Assembly: GCA_007129255.1 (NCBI GenBank)
Contig: SKVW01000053.1
Coordinates: 306 to 64,305, forward strand
From: Bacteroidales bacterium
Lineage (GTDB): Bacteria > Bacteroidota > Bacteroidia > Bacteroidales > UBA7960
Direction: 5' to 3'
Length of the DNA stretch: 64,000 nucleotides
Below are positions 14,660 to 59,460 of this stretch, piece by piece. The position numbers and the translations under genes were made by a program. The notes beneath the pieces are model-generated. The model made no database searches and was not told where the DNA came from. It saw only the letters and a program-made list of their open reading frames with translations. Position 1 is the first letter of the stretch, and every line of letters starts with the position of its first letter.

Positions 14660-16335
14660 TCTGCTTTTAACTTTCGGTATTTGATCCTTTTGGGTCTGGT
14701 ATCTCCCAGTCTTTTCTTTTTATTTTCCTCGTATTCTGAATATCCTCCTTCAAAAAAGCAAACATTGGAATCCCCTTCAAAAGCCAGGATATGGGTTGCC
14801 ACCCTGTCAAGGAACCATCGGTCGTGGGTAATGATCACCGCACAACCGGCAAAGTTTTCCAGGCCTTCTTCCAGTGCCCTGAGGGTATTAACGTCAATGT
14901 CATTGGTAGGCTCGTCCAAAAGGAGCACGTTAGCTTCACTTTTAAGGGTAAGTGCAAGGTGCAAACGGTTTCTTTCTCCTCCGGAAAGTACGCCGCATTT
15001 TTTTCCCTGGTCGGTACCGGTAAAATTAAAACGGGCCACATATGCCCGGCTGTTCATCTTTCTGCCAGACAGATTGATGAACTCATGACCCCCGGAAATG
15101 ACTTCCCATATGCTCTTTTCAGGATCTATATCGGCATGGGATTGATCTACATAGCCAATTTTTACGGTATCTCCTATTTCGAAACTTCCCCGGTCTGGGT
15201 TTTCATGGCCCATGATCATGCGGAAAAGGGTGGTTTTTCCTGCCCCGTTGGGTCCAATGATCCCGACAATGCCGGCCGGCGGCAATGAAAAGCTCAAATC
15301 TTCAAAAAGAAGCTTATCCCCAAAAGCTTTGGTTACCTGGTTGGCTTCCACGATTTTGCTTCCTAATCTGGATCCGTTGGGTATAAATATCTCGAGGCGT
15401 TCTTCTTTTTGTTTTACGTCTTCGTTGAGTAATTTGTCGTATGCGCTAAGCCTGGCCTTTGATTTGGCGTGCCGGCCTTTGGGGCTCATCCGCACCCAGT
15501 CAAGTTCCCTTTCCAATGTTTTGCGGCGCTTGCTTTCACTTTTCTCCTCCATCTCCAGGCGCTTTGACTTTTGTTCCAGCCAGGAAGAATAGTTTCCTTT
15601 CCAGGGAATCCCCTCTCCCCTGTCCAGTTCAAGGATCCATCCTGCCACATTATCAAGAAAATACCGGTCGTGTGTAATGGCGATCACGGTTCCCTTGTAT
15701 TGATGCAAATGCTGCTCCAGCCAGTCCACACTTTCAGCATCCAGGTGGTTGGTGGGCTCATCCAGCAACAGGATATCAGGTTCCCGCAGGAGCAGGCGGC
15801 ACAAAGCCACCCTGCGGCGCTCACCACCGCTGAGATGCCTCACCGGTGAACTTCCATCAGGGCAACGCAGGGCATCCATGGCCCTTTCCAGTTTGCTATC
15901 CAGTTCCCATCCTCCATGTTGTTCTATCAGGTCCGACAGCTCTCCCTGCCGCTCTATGAGCTTATTCATCTCCTCGTCGCTCATGGGTTCGGCAAACTTC
16001 ATGTTGACCTGTTCATATTCTTTCAAAACATTCACAATTTCCTGAACCCCTTCCTCCACAATTTCTTTAACAGTCTTGTTGTCATCCAGTTCCGGCTCCT
16101 GGGAAAGATGACCCACCGAATATCCGGGAGAAAACACCACATCTCCCTGGTAGGATTTCTCTTTGCCGGCAATGATGCGCATCAGGGTAGACTTTCCGGA
16201 ACCATTCAAACCGATTATACCGATTTTGGCACCGTAAAAAAAAGAGAGGTAAATGTCTTTTAAAACCTGTTTGTTAGGAGGAAAAACCTTGCTAACCCCC
16301 ACCATGGAAAAGATGATCTTTTTGTCGTCGCTCAT
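14656..16335 (-). CDS. ettA: ABC-F ATPase, energy-dependent translational throttle protein EttA
   Basis: 559 aa with two ABC cassettes (GLNGSGKST / LSGGERRR and GPNGAGKTT / LSGGERNR). No TM domain. Length and linker are typical of EttA. Confidence 0.9.
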   Translation of the reverse strand: MSDDKKIIFSMVGVSKVFPPNKQVLKDIYLSFFYGAKIGIIGLNGSGKSTLMRIIAGKEKSYQGDVVFSPGYSVGHLSQEPELDDNKTVKEIVEEGVQEIVNVLKEYEQVNMKFAEPMSDEEMNKLIERQGELSDLIEQHGGWELDSKLERAMDALRCPDGSSPVRHLSGGERRRVALCRLLLREPDILLLDEPTNHLDAESVDWLEQHLHQYKGTVIAITHDRYFLDNVAGWILELDRGEGIPWKGNYSSWLEQKSKRLEMEEKSESKRRKTLERELDWVRMSPKGRHAKSKARLSAYDKLLNEDVKQKEERLEIFIPNGSRLGSKIVEANQVTKAFGDKLLFEDLSFSLPPAGIVGIIGPNGAGKTTLFRMIMGHENPDRGSFEIGDTVKIGYVDQSHADIDPEKSIWEVISGGHEFINLSGRKMNSRAYVARFNFTGTDQGKKCGVLSGGERNRLHLALTLKSEANVLLLDEPTNDIDVNTLRALEEGLENFAGCAVIITHDRWFLDRVATHILAFEGDSNVCFFEGGYSEYEENKKKRLGDTRPKRIKYRKLKAD

Positions 16336-16394
16336 TTGTAAAAATTATAGGATGAATGGAAATGCAAATTTCCAAAAAAAAGCGGACTGTTTCG

Positions 16395-16402
16395 CAAAAT
16401 TA
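16395..16402 (-). promoter_or_regulatory. -7 box TAatTTTG upstream of ettA
   Basis: The minus strand reads TAATTTTG, 60 nt upstream of the ATG at 16335. Confidence 0.35.
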
Positions 16403-16553
16403 TCCCCGTGGCAAGAAATTATCGTTCTATCTTTGAGCAATTGTTTTTAAAAATTTTCAGCGGTTACCGTCATGGGTAACCCGTTTGGCCTGACAATTTC
16501 AGGAAGGGAATTTTTTTTTGATTGATTATTTGGGTAGTAAAAAAACACTAATA

Positions 16554-18446
16554 ATGAGTAAACTGACGCACCAGGAAATAAAGGATTTTTTAAAAGATGT
16601 TGAACTTTTTTCTGACCTTCAGCAGAAGGAGCTGGATTACTTCAGTGGGGAAATGGAAAGCAAATCCTATAAAAAAGGAGAATTGCTTTTTTCTGAGAAT
16701 ACCCCCGGTCACAAGCATTTGTTTTTGATTTATGATGGAGAGGTTGAGCTTTTTAAAAACACTCCCTTTGGCGAGGAAAAGCGTTTGTCTTTTTTCCGGA
16801 AATATGATTTTATCGGGGAAGGAACCATGTTATCGGAAGCTCCTCATAGCACCACGGCCCGGGCATTAAATAATACCAGGGTACTCATGCTGGCCGGTGA
16901 AAAATTCAAAAAAATGTTTGAGACCCATACCGGGGTTGCCCTGAAAATTTTCATGCAGGTTTCAAAGGTCATTTCCCGGCGCATGCGCCAGAGCAATATG
17001 CGGATGGTGAATGTGGCAGCACAGTATGAATCAGGACGCACGCGCAGTGAAAAGGATCTTTTGGGTCAAAGGGATGTACCTCATGAGGTGCATTATGGGA
17101 TTCAGACCTTAAGAGCCCTTGAAAACTTTAACATCAGTGGGGTAACCCTTAATTTTTTCCCGGTGCTGATTCAGGCTCTCGCCATGGTAAAAATGGCAGC
17201 TGCCAGGGCCAATCACGATCTTGGCCTGTTAAAAGCCCCGGTGACTGAAGCCATTGAGCAAGCTTGTCATGAGATCATACAGGGAAAATATGTTGCGCAG
17301 TTTGTTGTAGACATGATCCAGGGGGGAGCCGGCACTTCAACCAATATGAATGCCAATGAGGTTATTGCCAACCGGGCCCTTGAAATCATGGGATACAAGA
17401 AAGGAGATTACCGGTATTGTCACCCCAATAACCATGTAAACCTTTCGCAGAGCACCAACGATGCTTATCCTACTGCAATAAAAATTGCCCTGATCAACAG
17501 CAACACAAGGCTGGTTGAAGTGCTGGAAACACTTATTAATGGGTTGAAAGAAAAAGAAGAAGAATTTGCCGGTATTCTTAAAATGGGCCGCACACAATTG
17601 CAGGACGCCGTGCCCATGACCTTAGGGCAGACTTTTGGGGCGTATGCTACCACCCTTGAAGAGGAAATTTTCCGTCTGAATGACAATGCCGGGCTACTGG
17701 AAGAAATAAATATGGGGGGCACGGCAATCGGGACGGGGATCAATGCCGAACCTGAATACAGTGAAAAGGTGACATGGCATTTGCGCCAGATCACCGGGCT
17801 TGATCTGAAGCTTGCGCCTAACCTGGTGGAAGCCACCCAGGATACCGGGGCATTTGTAATGTATTCTTCAGTGGTAAAACGTTTGGCAGTGAAACTTTCC
17901 AAAATTTGCAACGATCTCAGGTTGCTTTCCTCCGGACCGCGCACGGGTCTGAACGAAATTAACCTTCCACCCATGCAGCCGGGGTCGTCCATCATGCCGG
18001 GCAAGGTAAATCCCGTGATTCCGGAAGTGGTCAACCAGATCGCCTTTAAAGTGATAGGCAACGACCTTACGGTGACCATGGCCGCGGAGGCCGGGCAACT
18101 GGAGCTTAATGTAATGGAACCCATCATGGTTCAAAGCCTTTTCGAGTCCATTGAAATGCTGAAAAATGGAATGACTACCCTGCTTTATCGTTGCATAAAA
18201 GGGATTACCGCCAATGAGGCGCATTGCCGCAACATGGTGTTGAACAGCATAGGACTGGTTACGGCCCTTAACCCGGTTTTGGGCTATGAGAAATGCACCC
18301 AGGTTGCCAAAGAGGCTCTTGAGCAGAATAAAGGGGTATATGAGCTGGTGCTGGAAAAAGGCTGGTTATCGCAAGCTGAGCTGGAAAATTTGCTCTCCCC
18401 TGAAAACATGCTCGGCCCCAGTATCCATAAAGATAAAAGATCATGA
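16554..18446 (+). CDS. aspA: Aspartate ammonia-lyase with an N-terminal cyclic-nucleotide-binding-like domain
   Basis: The C-terminal ~470 aa carry aspartase motifs: HYGIQTLRALENF, TSTNMNANEV and GSSIMPGKVNPVIPEVVNQ. The N-terminal ~150 aa match the CAP/cNMP-binding pattern (LFSDL...GELLFSE...YDGEVELFK...IGEGTML). I chose the ATG at 16554 over the TTG at 16518. Confidence 0.85.
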   Translation: MSKLTHQEIKDFLKDVELFSDLQQKELDYFSGEMESKSYKKGELLFSENTPGHKHLFLIYDGEVELFKNTPFGEEKRLSFFRKYDFIGEGTMLSEAPHSTTARALNNTRVLMLAGEKFKKMFETHTGVALKIFMQVSKVISRRMRQSNMRMVNVAAQYESGRTRSEKDLLGQRDVPHEVHYGIQTLRALENFNISGVTLNFFPVLIQALAMVKMAAARANHDLGLLKAPVTEAIEQACHEIIQGKYVAQFVVDMIQGGAGTSTNMNANEVIANRALEIMGYKKGDYRYCHPNNHVNLSQSTNDAYPTAIKIALINSNTRLVEVLETLINGLKEKEEEFAGILKMGRTQLQDAVPMTLGQTFGAYATTLEEEIFRLNDNAGLLEEINMGGTAIGTGINAEPEYSEKVTWHLRQITGLDLKLAPNLVEATQDTGAFVMYSSVVKRLAVKLSKICNDLRLLSSGPRTGLNEINLPPMQPGSSIMPGKVNPVIPEVVNQIAFKVIGNDLTVTMAAEAGQLELNVMEPIMVQSLFESIEMLKNGMTTLLYRCIKGITANEAHCRNMVLNSIGLVTALNPVLGYEKCTQVAKEALEQNKGVYELVLEKGWLSQAELENLLSPENMLGPSIHKDKRS

Positions 18447-19036
18447 AATCCTGCGTTCCCCCGCCGGTGATGCTCAATGGCTGGAAACACCACCTTGGCT
18501 TTGTGGTTTCAAAACTCAGGGATTTTAAAGAAAGAAAACCGCAGGATTTTGAAGCCTTCATTCTTAAGTTGAAAATGCTGGGGGAATCTCAGTTTGACCT
18601 TTACACCGGGTTTCTAACCCACGTCGATATTGCAAAAGAAGCCATAATCCATCTGGAAACCCGAACCAGCCTTGATCCACATTCATACAAGGCCTGGTTA
18701 AGTGAAGGGCAAACCCATTATAAAGAAGTTATGTTTTCCGATCAATCCACCTGGACCTTTCTCGAAGGAGATGATGAGAGTTATTTCATTCACATTCATC
18801 CCTCCAGACATTCAAAGCATAGCTGCCGAATGAAAGCCAACCATTTCCGATCGGCTTTGGGGCTTTTGGCCTATGCTGTTTTTAAAAAGCAAAAACCAGA
18901 TCTGGAGTTGTTAAACCGCCTCAGGAAGGATTATCTTGACTTGTCTGTTCTGACCCCTGTTTATGCAAATTCTATTTTTGAAACCGCAGAATTTATAATG
19001 GATAGAAGCAATATTGGAAATAATCTGAATGGTTGA
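18443..19036 (+). CDS. Hypothetical protein, translationally coupled to aspA
   Basis: 197-aa ORF whose ATG overlaps the aspA stop (ATGA). No motif recognised. It contains a His-rich patch, FIHIHPSRHSKHSC. Confidence 0.6.
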   Translation: MKSCVPPPVMLNGWKHHLGFVVSKLRDFKERKPQDFEAFILKLKMLGESQFDLYTGFLTHVDIAKEAIIHLETRTSLDPHSYKAWLSEGQTHYKEVMFSDQSTWTFLEGDDESYFIHIHPSRHSKHSCRMKANHFRSALGLLAYAVFKKQKPDLELLNRLRKDYLDLSVLTPVYANSIFETAEFIMDRSNIGNNLNG

Positions 19037-40055: not shown

Positions 40056-41348
40056 ATGTCAACCATAAGATTTTTATCGAAGAAAAAAAAGTTAGCTGTG
40101 GACGTATTTAAAAAAACGACAAATAATATGGGCCCTTTGGGCCAATACGCAAGCCAGGTTCATGGTTACTGGACCTTTCCCAAGCTGGAAGGTGAGATAT
40201 CTACCCGTATGAAGTTTCGGGGAAAAGAAAAACTGGTTTGGAGTTTAAATAATTACCTTGGTCTGGCCAACCATCCCGAAGTACGTAAGGCTGATGCAGA
40301 GGCTTCTGCCCAATTCGGGTTAGCCCTTCCAATGGGTGCCCGCATGATGTCCGGCCAAACCGATCTTCATGAAAAACTCGAACAGGAGCTGGCAGATTTT
40401 GTTGGGAAAGAATCGGCTTATTTGCTCAATTACGGTTACCAGGGAATGGTATCCATCATTGATTCACTGGTTGACCGCAAGGATGTAATTGTTTATGACT
40501 CGGAATCGCATGCATGCATCATCGACGGGGTGCGCCTTCACATGGGCAAACGGTTCGTTTATCCGCATAACAACATAGAAAATCTGCGCAAGCAATTGGA
40601 GCGGGCCACCAAAATGTGTAAAGAAACAGGAGGTGGAATCCTGGTAATTACTGAAGGCGTTTTTGGCATGTCAGGCGATCTGGGCAAGCTGGATAAAATA
40701 GCCGCCCTCAAAAAGGAATTTTCTTTCAGGCTGTTGGTAGACGATGCTCATGGTTTTGGAACCATGGGAAATACTGGAGCCGGTGTTGGAGAGTACCTTG
40801 GCGTGCAGGATGAGATTGACGTGTATTTCGGAACTTTCGCCAAATCGGTAGCTTCCATAGGAGCATTTGTTGCTGCGCCCAGAGAAGTGATCGTCTACCT
40901 GATGTACAACATGCGCAGCCAGATCTTTGCCAAATCTCTGCCCATGGCTTTGGTTGTGGGTGCCCTGAAAAGGCTGGAACTGATCCGCAATCATCCTGAA
41001 TTGCGTGACCAGCTCTGGACGATCGCCAATGCATTGCAGAAAGGACTCAAAGACAGAGGATTTAATATTGGGAATACCCAGTCTCCCGTTACCCCGGTAT
41101 TTTTAAATGGCGGTCCCCAGGAAGGCGCCAACCTTGCACACGACCTTAGGGAGAATTTCAATATTTTCTGTTCTGTAGTGACTTACCCGGTTGTTCCCAA
41201 AGGCGTTATCATTATCAGGCTTATTCCTACGGCCATTCACACCCTTGAAGATGTGAACTATTCCCTGGAAGCTTTTTCGAAAATTAAAGCAAAGCTGGAT
41301 GCAGGTGAATATGCCAGTGGAAAGTTTGTTGATGTGAAGACTTCCTGA
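40056..41348 (+). CDS. Alpha-oxoamine synthase family PLP enzyme (BioF/Kbl/serine-palmitoyltransferase-like)
   Basis: Contains NNYLGLANHPEV, LLVDDAHGFG, and the PLP-lysine context GTFAKSVASIGAF. Substrate specificity cannot be read from sequence. The true start could be the internal Met at 40128. Confidence 0.8.
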   Translation: MSTIRFLSKKKKLAVDVFKKTTNNMGPLGQYASQVHGYWTFPKLEGEISTRMKFRGKEKLVWSLNNYLGLANHPEVRKADAEASAQFGLALPMGARMMSGQTDLHEKLEQELADFVGKESAYLLNYGYQGMVSIIDSLVDRKDVIVYDSESHACIIDGVRLHMGKRFVYPHNNIENLRKQLERATKMCKETGGGILVITEGVFGMSGDLGKLDKIAALKKEFSFRLLVDDAHGFGTMGNTGAGVGEYLGVQDEIDVYFGTFAKSVASIGAFVAAPREVIVYLMYNMRSQIFAKSLPMALVVGALKRLELIRNHPELRDQLWTIANALQKGLKDRGFNIGNTQSPVTPVFLNGGPQEGANLAHDLRENFNIFCSVVTYPVVPKGVIIIRLIPTAIHTLEDVNYSLEAFSKIKAKLDAGEYASGKFVDVKTS

Positions 41349-49113: not shown

Positions 49114-50022
49114 ATGCCAACAAAAATCAGACTACAGCGGAAAGGTAAAAAAGGACAACCTTTTTACCAACTGGTAGTTGCGGATGGTCGTGCACCCCGA
49201 GATGGAAAGTTTATTGAGAGACTTGGCACATACAACCCCATGACCCACCCGACAACTATAGAGATCGACTTTGATCGTTCCCTTTACTGGGTGCAGGTTG
49301 GGGCCCAACCCACAGATACTGCCCGCAGTATTTTATCACACAAAGGGGTGCTTTTGAAGCACCATTTACTTAAAGGAGTTAAAAAAGGCGCCCTTACAGA
49401 AGATCAGGTAGAGGAAAGATTTCAGGCCTGGCTGAAGGAAAAGCAGGAAAAAATTGAACAAGCTTCCAAAGATTCCGATCTTTCGGAAAAAGAACTTATC
49501 AAGAAGAGACTTGAAGAAGAGAAAAAGGTAAGCGAAGCCCGTGCAGAGGAACTTGCCAAAAAACGCGCTAAGGAAAATCTGAAAGCCGAAGAAGCCAAAG
49601 CTGAAAAAGCTGCCGAAACCGCCCAACCCGAAAAGGCCCCTGCTGAGGAAGCAAAAGGCGAAGAAGCTGCTGCTGAAAAGCCTGCTGCTGAAGAATTAAA
49701 GGTTGAAGATAAGCCCGAAGCCAAAAAAGAAGAGAAAACGGAGGAGAAAGCAGAAGTAAAGCCTGAGGAAAAGCCCGAAGAGAAAAAGGAAGAGAAAGCT
49801 GAAGTAAAGGCTGAAGAAAAACCGGAATCCAAAAAAGAAGAGAAAGCCGAAGTAAAGGCTGAGGAAAAGCCGGAAGAGAAAAAGGAAGAAAAGGCAGAAG
49901 AAAAAGCTGAAGCCAAAGCCAAAGCCGAAAAGAAAGAGGAAGTAAAAGCCGAAGACAAAGAAGAAAAGAAGTCTGAAAAAGACAAAGAAGAAAAGGAAGA
50001 CAAAGAGAAGAAGGCAGAATAA
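49114..50022 (+). CDS. rpsP: 30S ribosomal protein S16 with a ~210-aa Lys/Glu/Ala-rich C-terminal extension
   Basis: The N-terminal ~85 aa are canonical S16 ([37 protein letters not shown]). The rest is low-complexity KEA-rich sequence. Confidence 0.9.
49741..49884 (+). repeat. Three tandem 48-nt (16-codon) units inside the S16 tail
   Basis: Units at 49741-49788, 49789-49836 and 49837-49884 each encode EEKAEVK(A/P)EEKPE(E/S)KK. They are in frame and near-identical at nucleotide level. Confidence 0.8.
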
Positions 50023-54221: not shown

Positions 54222-55451
54222 TTAAACATTAAGTTTTTCTCCTTCACTTTTTGCTACCACCACAGCGCAACAACTATCTCCCCATACATTGGCGGTTGTC
54301 CTGAACATATCTAAAATTCTGTCAACAGGCAGGATTAATGCCATCAATTCAAGAGGCAGCCCAAGAACCTGAAGAATTATAGTAATAATAACCAAACTAG
54401 CCATGGGTATTCCTGCAGTTCCTATGCTTGACAATAATGCTGTAATCAATATCAGAATCTGCTCTTGCATACCCATAACTTCTCCTTGTGCCTGTGCAAT
54501 AAACAACACCACAGCTGAAATATATATTGCTGTTCCATCCATATTTATAGTGGTGCCTATGGGGATGGTAAAATTGGTTATTTTATGCGAAACGCCTGAA
54601 TTTTCATGTGTTTCTTTCATGTTAAGGGGCAATGAAGCTGCTGAAGAGGCGGTAGAAAAGGCAGTGATTAAGGTTGTTTTAACATTGCTTAGGTGCCTGA
54701 AAGGTTTGGCTTTGCCAATATAACGGGTTATAAGGGGCAAAGTAATCAAAGAATGAATTAAAATCCCAAGTAAAACCGTTAGCATAAAAAGTCCCAAACT
54801 GGAAACCATGTTCACAAAGTCTTTTTGTTCAGCAACAACTTTTGCAATTAAACCAAAAATCCCAAAAGGAGCAAGCTTAATTACGAACATGGTTATCTTC
54901 ATAAATAACTCAAAAAACGCCTTAAAAAAATGGGAAAGGACTAAATTGTTCTTTTTATCCAGTTTACTGATAAATATACCGGCTAATATGGCAAAGAATA
55001 TCACCGCCAAAAAATCATTGGTTGCCATGGCATGAAAAATATTATCCGGAACGATATTCAGAAACACATCGGATATTTCTGGTCTTTCAATCACTATAGA
55101 TTCGTCAACAGCAACAGACGTTATATCCATTCCTACCCCTGGTTTGATTATATTTACCAGCAGCAAACCGACAATAATAGCAAAAGTGCTGGTGGTCAGG
55201 TAAAATCCAAAAGTTTTTAAGCCCAGCCTTCCAAGGTTGCCACCGCTCCCAATATTTACCAATCCCGAAATAATTGAACTTAAAATCAAAGGGATAACAA
55301 TCATCCGGAGCAGGCGCAGGAATATATCACCCATCCAGGAAACATAAATGACATGATCTTTAAAAAAGATACCAAACAATATTGCCAGAATAAACGCAAT
55401 TAAAATCTGCCAGTGCAGTTTTAGCTTAGTTAAGGATTTTAATAGTTTCAT
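54222..55451 (-). CDS. Dicarboxylate/amino acid:cation symporter (DAACS, GltP-like)
   Basis: About 410 aa with 8-10 TM segments. The SSAASLP and NMDGTA motifs are typical of the family. I chose the start at 55451 (MKLLKSL...). Confidence 0.85.
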   Translation of the reverse strand: MKLLKSLTKLKLHWQILIAFILAILFGIFFKDHVIYVSWMGDIFLRLLRMIVIPLILSSIISGLVNIGSGGNLGRLGLKTFGFYLTTSTFAIIVGLLLVNIIKPGVGMDITSVAVDESIVIERPEISDVFLNIVPDNIFHAMATNDFLAVIFFAILAGIFISKLDKKNNLVLSHFFKAFFELFMKITMFVIKLAPFGIFGLIAKVVAEQKDFVNMVSSLGLFMLTVLLGILIHSLITLPLITRYIGKAKPFRHLSNVKTTLITAFSTASSAASLPLNMKETHENSGVSHKITNFTIPIGTTINMDGTAIYISAVVLFIAQAQGEVMGMQEQILILITALLSSIGTAGIPMASLVIITIILQVLGLPLELMALILPVDRILDMFRTTANVWGDSCCAVVVAKSEGEKLNV

Positions 55452-55676
55452 AAAAGCGTCCTTTAAATATCCATTTTTTGACCGGCAATAATACGAAAAC
55501 AATTCACAAAACGCTAAAATTTTTTCAGTTCAAAAAGAGTCCGGAAATTTTGACACCCAAACATTTCAAACAAATGCCAATATGTCATAAAACCTATTGG
55601 GGGTTTGAATGGTTTAACCTTTGCAGCCGCGATGAGAAAATATTAATAGGTAATGCAATAAAAATATATAAATAAA

Positions 55677-58395: not shown

Positions 58396-59460
58396 TTAAT
58401 ATCTAAGGATTGCCGCTATTTTTTCATGCTCTTTCAAAGAGCCGTTTTCTACAAAAAGAACCCTTCCCCCTTTGTTGATGGCCAGCTCTGCGACCTCGTC
58501 CACTGCATCATCCATGGTACCGTTGCCCTGCGGCTTATGCAGAAAAGTAAGTGTATTTTGGTTTTCCAGTTTTGCGGGCTGGTGGTAATCTTCCTCAATA
58601 AGCAGCAAACCGGTGCGCCCCTGTGAGGTAAAATTCCATACTTGCGACAATCCGGAGGCATATTTCCCATTACTTACAGCTTTATTCAGATCTTCAAGTG
58701 CCTCGTTGCGGACTTCCTGCATTTTTTCCTTAACCTTTGGCCAGGCTTTTTTACCAAGGTCATGGACAGAGGCATTGTCAAAGTTTCCGCTTAGCTGTGT
58801 TAAAATTATGTCCTTATTGTCTGCAACTTCCCGATATAGCGAAAGATTTTTTTCAACACCTGCCAGTACCAGCTTTTCAGGATCTTTTTTAATGATCTCT
58901 AAAACTCTTTTGTCTACATTGTTATAGAACTCTTTTAGTTTTTTCTTTTTTTCTCTTGATAGATCGGACAGATTGAACTGTGCAAATTCCATATCATTTT
59001 CCACAGGAAAGCCATCGGAAATTTCCACGGCATCGTCTCTGAAACAACTCATCAGGCGGGCCTTTTGAGCCGTAATTGCCAGTAAATAATACCGTGTGCC
59101 CCGGTTGACGCTTTTTATGATGTCCCGCGTAGCAAAGGTTTTGTCAATAATCACCCTTTCCCTCACCCTGAATGGGAGGTCAACTTTTTCAGCAAAATCT
59201 TTACTGATAAACAAGCCCAGACCATCTAAAGTCCTGCTAATATCAATATTATTGGCCAATGCTTGCATTTTTCCGATCAAGGGGGTTATATCCCTTTTAG
59301 GGAATTCGCCAAGCAGCCTTTCCTCTGCTTCCCGAACCAGATTCCTGATCCGGATAGCGTTTTTTTGATTATCCGGGGCTGTCCGATAGGTGGGCAGCAA
59401 AATGGAAACACAGGGATAATCATTTACTTCCATTAACTTTTTCAATACAATTTGATTCAT
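58396..59460 (-). CDS. eRF1/Pelota-like (bacterial aeRF1-superfamily) protein
   Basis: 354 aa. The ordered landmarks YPCVSILLPTYR, RYYLLAITAQKARL, KLVLAGVEKNLSLY, GLLLIEEDY and the C-terminal EKIAAILRY parallel the eRF1/Pelota central and C-terminal domains. No GGQ motif. Confidence 0.55.
   Translation of the reverse strand: MNQIVLKKLMEVNDYPCVSILLPTYRTAPDNQKNAIRIRNLVREAEERLLGEFPKRDITPLIGKMQALANNIDISRTLDGLGLFISKDFAEKVDLPFRVRERVIIDKTFATRDIIKSVNRGTRYYLLAITAQKARLMSCFRDDAVEISDGFPVENDMEFAQFNLSDLSREKKKKLKEFYNNVDKRVLEIIKKDPEKLVLAGVEKNLSLYREVADNKDIILTQLSGNFDNASVHDLGKKAWPKVKEKMQEVRNEALEDLNKAVSNGKYASGLSQVWNFTSQGRTGLLLIEEDYHQPAKLENQNTLTFLHKPQGNGTMDDAVDEVAELAINKGGRVLFVENGSLKEHEKIAAILRY

Follow-up and report, generated by a model that had tools for sequence, protein, structure and literature searches.

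Aspartase (aspartate ammonia-lyase) links amino-acid catabolism, ammonia release and the supply of fumarate for anaerobic respiration. Model bacteria control it mainly at the level of transcription, E. coli aspA being under cyclic AMP (cAMP)-CRP, and the allosteric activation reported for E. coli AspA, by L-aspartate and Mg2+ at alkaline pH, is not known to involve a separate domain. Regulation of a fused enzyme by a cyclic-nucleotide-binding (CNB) domain is already known as a principle. In the mycobacterial proteins MtKat and MsKat, cAMP acts by way of an N-terminal CNB domain to activate the fused GNAT acetyltransferase (PMC5861322, citing Nambi et al. 2010). The phosphate-binding cassette (PBC) Arg of CNB domains neutralizes and hydrogen-bonds the cyclic phosphate, and CNB-like domains without it are generally not cAMP-responsive (PMC11550324, PMC2246266). 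Such Arg-less folds bind heme (CooA), chlorophenolacetate (CprK), 2-oxoglutarate (NtcA) or peptides (KCNH) (PMC11550324; PMC2246266). CooA ligates heme through a His that stands at the Arg209-equivalent (PMC2246266); in trypanosomatid protein kinase A (PKA), polar residues replace the Arg, a Glu at Ala202 excludes phosphate and purine nucleosides bind (PMC10959531); and the CNB-like domain (CBD) of Family 2B encapsulin, with Trp for Arg, does not bind cAMP, and activity is unaffected (PMC11550324). Here we describe a gene in a 64,000-nucleotide stretch of Bacteroidales DNA (assembly GCA_007129255.1, contig SKVW01000053.1, positions 306 to 64,305 of the forward strand; hereafter the window) that encodes a CRP-type sensor, with His in place of the cassette Arg, fused in frame to a complete aspartase.

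A sensor domain fused to aspartase

The fusion gene is complete at 16554–18446 on the plus strand of the window and, in the list of open reading frames (ORFs), encodes 630 amino acids from an ATG at 16554 to a stop codon at 18444–18446. This ATG agrees with homologue N termini to within about three residues, and translation is unlikely to begin instead at an in-frame TTG at 16518. A first-pass annotation, made from the sequence alone, had read the ORF as a cyclic-nucleotide-binding-like sensor joined to aspartase; the peptide strings it quoted all occur in the 630-residue translation, and the three domains it expected were all recovered in a Pfam search. PF00027 (cNMP_binding) matches residues 37–125 over profile positions 2–89 of 89, above its curated threshold (E = 7.4e-19; 67.9 bits, where the gathering cutoff is 27.5), Lyase_1 (PF00206) matches residues 172–502 (E = 5.6e-96) and FumaraseC_C (PF10415) matches residues 568–620 (E = 5.9e-22). 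Solved aspartases are 468–478 amino acids long, so about 160 N-terminal residues of the protein are additional. Pfam and NCBIfam profiles found neither a remnant of a DNA-binding domain nor an HTH_Crp-type match anywhere in the 630 residues, and the protein does not belong with the CRP/FNR transcription factors: its C-helix runs into Lyase_1, with no winged helix-turn-helix. The sensor-coding part of the locus (16250–17000) has a GC content of 0.36–0.40 against 0.47–0.50 in the aspartase part (17000–18450), an AT-richness that probably comes from a Lys/Phe/Glu-rich composition and weaker constraint rather than from foreign origin.

The catalytic module occupies residues 162–627 (17037–18434, plus strand). 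Among NCBIfam models, NF008909 scores 751 bits over exactly these residues and the aspA equivalog TIGR00839 scores 710.3 bits over residues 164–627, above its trusted cutoff of 681.2, whereas the fumC model TIGR00979 reaches 482.9 bits, below its cutoff of 664.75, and class II fumarase models score far under theirs. With the solved aspartase 6WNG the same residues reach 639 bits, with E. coli AspA (1JSW) 543 and with fumarases about 375. With TIGR00839 above its cutoff, fumC below it and aspartases as the best solved relatives, we therefore assign the module as an aspartase rather than a fumarase, as the first reading had it, and its catalytic motifs are intact. The SS loop, catalytic in the fumarase/aspartase superfamily, reads GSSIMPGKVNP (residues 477–487; 17982–18014, plus strand) and is kept in all 185 full-length family members described below, as GSS or, in twelve, as GST, always with the first Ser. 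The motifs TSxNxNxNE, SQSTND and RTQLQDAxP occur in 183–185 of those members, and because they and the SS loop are intact, the fusion family looks catalytically competent as aspartase.

The fusion is real and conserved. That it arose through misassembly or a frameshift between a CRP-like gene and aspA, an artefact of the kind that the first-pass annotation had named as grounds for abandoning its reading, has a probability close to nil. Three independent NCBI assemblies of metagenome-assembled genomes (GCA_007118925.1, GCA_003566495.1 and GCA_003558045.1) contain an identical protein among the same flanking genes. The best 120 protein clusters (70–100% identity) all have PF00027+PF00206+PF10415, at lengths of 605–635 residues apart from one of 572 residues with 90% coverage of the query. 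There are at least 185 full-length orthologues, from many studies and assemblers, and a scan of GTDB for two peptide patterns specific to the sensor, drawn from an 8-sequence alignment and run on a single genome for each species, found sensor relatives encoded in 235 species genomes. Our locus analysis covers the best 80 loci of that scan, of which 65 hold a complete in-frame fusion; the other 15 comprise ten that are less than full length, two full-length GST variants that the SS-loop regular expression missed in the count of 65, and three without an ORF call. The junction peptide QYESGRTR is all but invariant, and the absence from Pfam matches of any DNA-binding remnant also speaks against a fused transcription-factor gene. 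Divergent members (35–52% sensor identity) are N-terminal fragments in a library of 50% representatives, and all of them continue into the aspartase N terminus.

Source databases name these proteins simply ‘aspartate ammonia-lyase’, which leaves the sensor invisible in current annotation; precomputed Pfam annotations do show the architecture itself. Most of the best 80 loci are labelled Bacteroidales or Ignavibacteria/Melioribacteraceae, and the remainder are Sphingobacteriia, Zixibacteria, Salinivirgaceae and Rhodothermaceae, with a few Syntrophobacteraceae, Acidobacteriota and Syntrophomonadaceae bins. One Calditrichota member is found among the best 120 protein clusters. Four loci in bins of unrelated phyla carry Bacteroidales- or Ignavibacteria-type cassettes, namely L028 and L029 (labelled Syntrophobacteraceae; the soda-lake sediment datasets behind them also yielded Bacteroidales bins), L065 (Acidobacteriota) and L070 (Syntrophomonadaceae); mis-binning or horizontal transfer could account for them. 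Two library representatives begin as CNB-aspartases and then depart from the architecture, P0123 (422 residues) into a histidine-kinase-like C terminus and P0126 (379 residues) into a low-complexity tail rich in Arg, Pro and Gly; these are probably chimeric contigs or frameshifts, not new architectures.

Conservation of the two halves and the linker

Conservation was measured on an alignment of the 185 full-length members. Mean pairwise identity is 56% in the sensor (minimum 35%) and 79% in the catalytic half, and the pairwise divergences of the two halves are correlated (Pearson r = 0.81), as would fit halves that have evolved together since they were fused once; from the shared architecture of the 120 clusters, the 235 species genomes and this correlation, we take the fusion to be ancient. 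Within the drifting sensor, L66, R77, E89, H98 and R143 are invariant (185/185), and G88, G90, P97, S99, T100, A102 and N148 are at least 94% conserved (N148 in 182 of 185). Since pocket positions are near-invariant in a domain that averages 56% identity, the alignment points to purifying selection on the pocket, beyond what the fold alone would require.

The most conserved segment of the whole protein is the inter-domain linker QYESGRTRSE (residues 157–166; 17022–17051, plus strand). Positions conserved at 97% or above make up 70% of the linker, 17% of the sensor and 47% of the catalytic part, and Q157, Y158, S160, G161 and R164 are invariant among 120 homologues. The QYESGRTR peptide leads from the C-helix directly into the first strand of the aspartase.

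Fold and ligand pocket of the sensor

Residues 1–156 (16554–17021, plus strand) make up the sensor module, in which N-terminal helices precede an eight-stranded beta-barrel and then a long C-helix, in the manner of the CRP type, as indicated by PF00027, AlphaFold2 (AF2) and Foldseek. A sensor-only AF2 model (predicted local distance difference test score, pLDDT, 81.5) places the strands between residues 35 and 114 and one continuous helix at 126–159, and this predicted structure has the eight-stranded barrel and B/C-helix fold of a CNB domain. With the predicted model as Foldseek query, the best matches are T. thermophilus CAP (4EV0), C. glutamicum GlxR (4CYD) and M. tuberculosis CRP, the figures for CRP structures being TMq 0.71–0.76 and probability 1.00 over about 147 aligned columns. 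By sequence, the best-scoring entries of the PDB are PKA regulatory subunits (PKA-R), protein kinase G (PKG) and CRP/FNR-type regulators.

The C-helix (residues 126–156; 16929–17021, plus strand) carries R142-R143 and S147-N148, equivalent to R122-R123 and T127-S128 of E. coli CAP in the CAP alignment. We compared the sensor with CAP by BLASTP, using a manually entered CAP sequence and cAMP contacts assigned from established CAP structures. CAP S62, G71, E72 and S83 map to S79, G88, E89 and S99 of the sensor, and CAP R123, T127 and S128 map to R143, S147 and N148; the sole differing contact is the phosphate-clamping Arg, with CAP R82 aligned to H98. Because the CAP contacts E72, S83, R123, T127 and S128 are all retained, the pocket still looks nucleotide-shaped and compatible with a cyclic nucleotide.

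The equivalent of the PBC is FIGEGTMLSEAPHSTTARA (residues 86–104; 16809–16865, plus strand), in which His98 is encoded at 16845–16847. His98 shares a column with the PBC Arg of PKA-R, PKG, the Streptomyces CRP-type regulator domain 2pqq and E. coli CAP, so that the Arg-to-His change pointed out in the first reading is genuine in four alignments, and it is also invariant. H98 and E89 are each present in 185 of the 185 full-length members, G88 in 175 and S99 in 177. The spacing of ten residues from G88 to H98 is canonical, as in PKA-R and PKG, and the ribose-binding Gly88-Glu89 pair is retained in the window protein. The sensor thus has the Gly-Glu of a CNB domain without its conserved Arg, and we treat it as a member of the CNB fold with putative cyclic-nucleotide binding. 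Rare replacements of the His occur in divergent fragments, as Tyr (P0142 and P0152), Gln (P0145) or Arg (P0146). At the position equivalent to PKA Ala202, the window protein has T91 and its homologues have Thr, Ala, Ser or Phe, never Glu. We considered a ribose-binding cassette of the trypanosomatid type and rejected it: the Arg is replaced, here by His, but the defining Glu at the Ala202-equivalent is absent.

In the nearest CNB relatives outside the fusion family, the cassette residue is overwhelmingly Arg, and the PH[ST] form is all but confined to the fusion, the exceptions being single domains in a few multi-CNB giants. Five non-fusion proteins carry His at the cassette Arg in one CNB domain each (for example FFGERSLLSGEPHSTS), four of them 867–980 residues long (P0138, P0167, P0178 and P0231) and one of 503 residues (P0158), each with two to four matched CNB stretches. 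His-type cassettes therefore occur sporadically outside the aspartase fusion.

A proposed ligand-gated aspartase

We consider it fairly probable that the protein is a ligand-gated aspartase (L-aspartate ⇌ fumarate + NH4+) under allosteric control by its own N-terminal CRP-type sensor, a proposal of direct small-molecule gating that we infer from architecture and conservation. The sensor domains would pair through their C-helices, as in CRP, and two sensor dimers would then cap the aspartase tetramer at its ends, the location of the N-terminal domains; N148 corresponds to CAP S128, the residue that contacts ligand across the dimer interface. A small ribose-containing effector, most likely a purine (cyclic) nucleotide or nucleoside, would bind in the pocket between barrel and C-helix, and any phosphate on it would be read by His98 instead of Arg, perhaps with weaker or pH-dependent binding. 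Ligand occupancy would re-orient the C-helix, and the rigid linker would pass this change to the N-terminal domain and active-site region of the aspartase, switching the enzyme between states of low and high activity, in whichever direction the effect may run. Production of fumarate and ammonia from amino acids could in this way be coupled to a cellular signal in anaerobic FCB-group bacteria, with no transcription factor needed.

Several observations weigh against this proposal. The full-length AF2 model has a pLDDT of 71.7, and residues 143–200, which span the domain junction, fall below 50, so the prediction lends no support to a particular domain geometry or transmission path. Loss of the PBC Arg abolishes cAMP responsiveness in most of the CNB domains studied (PMC11550324, PMC2246266), which makes the ligand class uncertain and would allow for a ligand-free sensor. 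A cyclase or phosphodiesterase gene was not found among the larger ORFs of the window that were scanned.

As to what the sensor binds, the caution in the first-pass annotation that the ligand may not be cAMP or cyclic GMP (cGMP) fits the literature on Arg-less CNB domains (PMC11550324, PMC2246266, PMC10959531). Our preference is for a ligand that contains ribose, is probably a purine and has its phosphate recognized in a non-canonical way, because the cassette spacing is canonical, the Gly-Glu pair is maintained, the Ala202-equivalent is not Glu and similarity to CooA is not alignable. His98 together with R77, E89, S99, R143 and N148 may define a new CNB ligand specificity, for a nucleoside, for a nucleotide that is non-cyclic or non-canonical, or for a cyclic nucleotide gated by pH, a suggestion that we put forward tentatively and at less than even confidence. 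Binding of canonical cAMP or cGMP, with a protonated His, possibly helped by the invariant Arg77 or Arg143, standing in for the Arg clamp, is a sub-case of the ligand-gated aspartase and in our judgement rather unlikely. The retention of every other CAP contact for cAMP, the ten-residue spacing and the cAMP-bound CRPs as nearest structures in Foldseek all speak for it, as does T/A/S91 in place of the phosphate-excluding Glu of the trypanosomatid PKA regulatory subunit (PMC10959531); mutation or natural loss of the PBC Arg, however, typically removes the cAMP response (PMC11550324; PMC2246266), and Arg is present in none of the 185 members, only in the one divergent fragment. An invariant His with Arg in no member indicates that His is specifically required at position 98. 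A nucleotide or nucleoside other than cAMP and cGMP is an unlikely ligand to about the same degree, or slightly more so.

A pocket for something other than a nucleotide is improbable. The candidates would be heme or a metal held by His98 for gas or redox sensing, or a metabolite such as 2-oxoglutarate, as in NtcA; the invariant His stands exactly where CooA ligates heme (PMC2246266), CNB folds without the Arg have heme, chlorophenolacetate, 2-oxoglutarate or peptides as ligands (PMC11550324), and a 2-oxoglutarate or redox signal would be logical for an enzyme of carbon and nitrogen metabolism and fumarate respiration. Set against this are a full-length cassette with its ribose-binding Gly-Glu and invariant Glu89, an acidic residue that is hard to square with an anionic dicarboxylate such as 2-oxoglutarate, and best matches in both sequence and structure to nucleotide-binding CRPs, PKA-R and PKG. 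CooA is not known to have the Gly-Glu cassette helix. A CooA-like heme sensor was provisionally set aside on sequence similarity: the position of the His matches, but the sensor gave no BLASTP alignment to R. rubrum CooA (E = 1.6, with a manually entered CooA sequence). A sensor that binds no ligand at all, serving as a structural or oligomerization module or self-liganded like the CNB-homology domains of KCNH and acting in tetramer stability, assembly or localization, seems to us very improbable. The Family 2B encapsulin CBD, in which Trp replaces Arg without cAMP binding or an effect on activity (PMC11550324), is a precedent for it, and a rigid, invariant linker would suit an architectural role as well. 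Conservation is nevertheless focused on the pocket positions R77, E89, H98, S99, R143 and N148 while the rest of the sensor has drifted, a pattern that is the hallmark of a maintained binding site. Standalone aspartases are tetramers, and solved ones are deposited with several chains per entry without any such domain.

Genomic context

Neighbouring genes give no clue to the ligand. None is conserved beyond lineage synteny, the best being a PepSY_TM-like gene (26 of 83 loci) and an ABC-F gene (22 of 83), and we dropped operon context as a guide to the ligand because the neighbours are not conserved past close relatives. The same lack of conserved neighbours suggests that regulation would be self-contained within the fusion protein. 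No Rfam elements or tRNAs were found in the window, nor a riboswitch or other RNA element upstream of the fusion gene, and a promoter and terminator scan did no better than on shuffled sequence.

Immediately downstream, an ORF of 197 residues (18443–19036, plus strand) begins with an ATG that overlaps the aspartase stop by 4 nucleotides (ATGA), an arrangement of translational coupling. It has no Pfam or NCBIfam match and falls into an orphan family with about 55 clusters, each named ‘hypothetical’, for which the organisms named in a few sources are Bacteroidales. Elsewhere the start of this family overlaps unrelated upstream genes (a miaA-like IPT gene or a HAD hydrolase), and locus L087 has the syntenic block with the 197-residue ORF but without the fusion gene. 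As a member of an orphan family that lies behind unrelated genes and is present in L087 without the fusion, the ORF was rejected as a ligand-making partner.

Other genes of the window include a sodium:dicarboxylate symporter of the SDF family (54222–55502, minus strand), which may carry aspartate/glutamate or C4-dicarboxylates, and a class I/II aminotransferase (40056–41348, plus strand); both lie 22–36 kb from the fusion gene, a distance that excludes inferring linkage. A 302-residue ORF (49114–50022, plus strand) matches ribosomal protein S16 at residues 9–67 only and has a C-terminal extension of about 230 residues, and a 353-residue protein (58396–59460, minus strand) matches bacterial archaeo-eukaryotic release-factor-like family 3 (baeRF_family3, E = 4.7e-39).

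Significance and comparison with known systems

The fusion is apparently unstudied. We found no paper that combines aspartase or aspartate ammonia-lyase with a cNMP- or cyclic-nucleotide-binding domain, a 2007 census of CNB architectures mentions no lyase, and no NCBIfam model covers the whole protein. A CRP-type sensor has apparently been wired onto this enzyme in hundreds of uncultured lineages of sediments and digesters and, if the proposed gating is true, it would offer a post-translational shortcut for a decision made elsewhere by transcriptional control. An invariant Arg-to-His change in an otherwise canonical cassette is a clean natural test case for ligand choice by CNB domains, and as aspartases are used industrially, the family is a possible starting point for ligand-switchable aspartases. 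Should a new specificity be true, it would imply an unrecognized small-molecule signal, used by FCB-group anaerobes (Bacteroidales, Ignavibacteria, Zixibacteria and Calditrichota), that acts directly on a central carbon and nitrogen enzyme, a bacterial counterpart of the nucleoside-for-cAMP swap in trypanosomatid PKA.

Solved aspartases (E. coli 1JSW, Bacillus YM55-1 1J3U and 6WNG) match residues 162–627 over their full length, with intact signature motifs, but at 468–478 residues the known enzymes have no N-terminal sensor. The cAMP receptors CRP and CAP share the fold of the sensor, including the single long C-helix, and the same ligand contacts, but they carry a C-terminal winged-helix DNA-binding domain where the C-helix of the fusion enters an enzyme, and their phosphate-clamping Arg82 is His in the fusion. 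Among CNB domains in which the PBC Arg is replaced, as it is here, the trypanosomatid PKA-R has Glu at the Ala202-equivalent where the fusion has T/A/S91, the Family 2B encapsulin CBD has Trp where the fusion has His in an otherwise canonical, full-length cassette, and CooA has its heme-ligating His at the matching position but gave no BLASTP alignment.

The closest parallel in organization is with MtKat and MsKat. The cassette of these proteins has the canonical Arg. In them, as in the fusion, an N-terminal CNB domain is joined directly to a catalytic domain, and their effector works on the enzyme post-translationally (PMC5861322, citing Nambi et al. 2010); the output there is a GNAT acetyltransferase responding to cAMP, whereas here it is a Lyase_1 aspartase, and the organisms belong to different phyla. 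The fusion is a CNB-fused enzyme, with an N-terminal CNB domain and a catalytic domain, and has no GNAT domain; by its predicted architecture it is an analogue of MtKat and MsKat in logic, not a member of their family.

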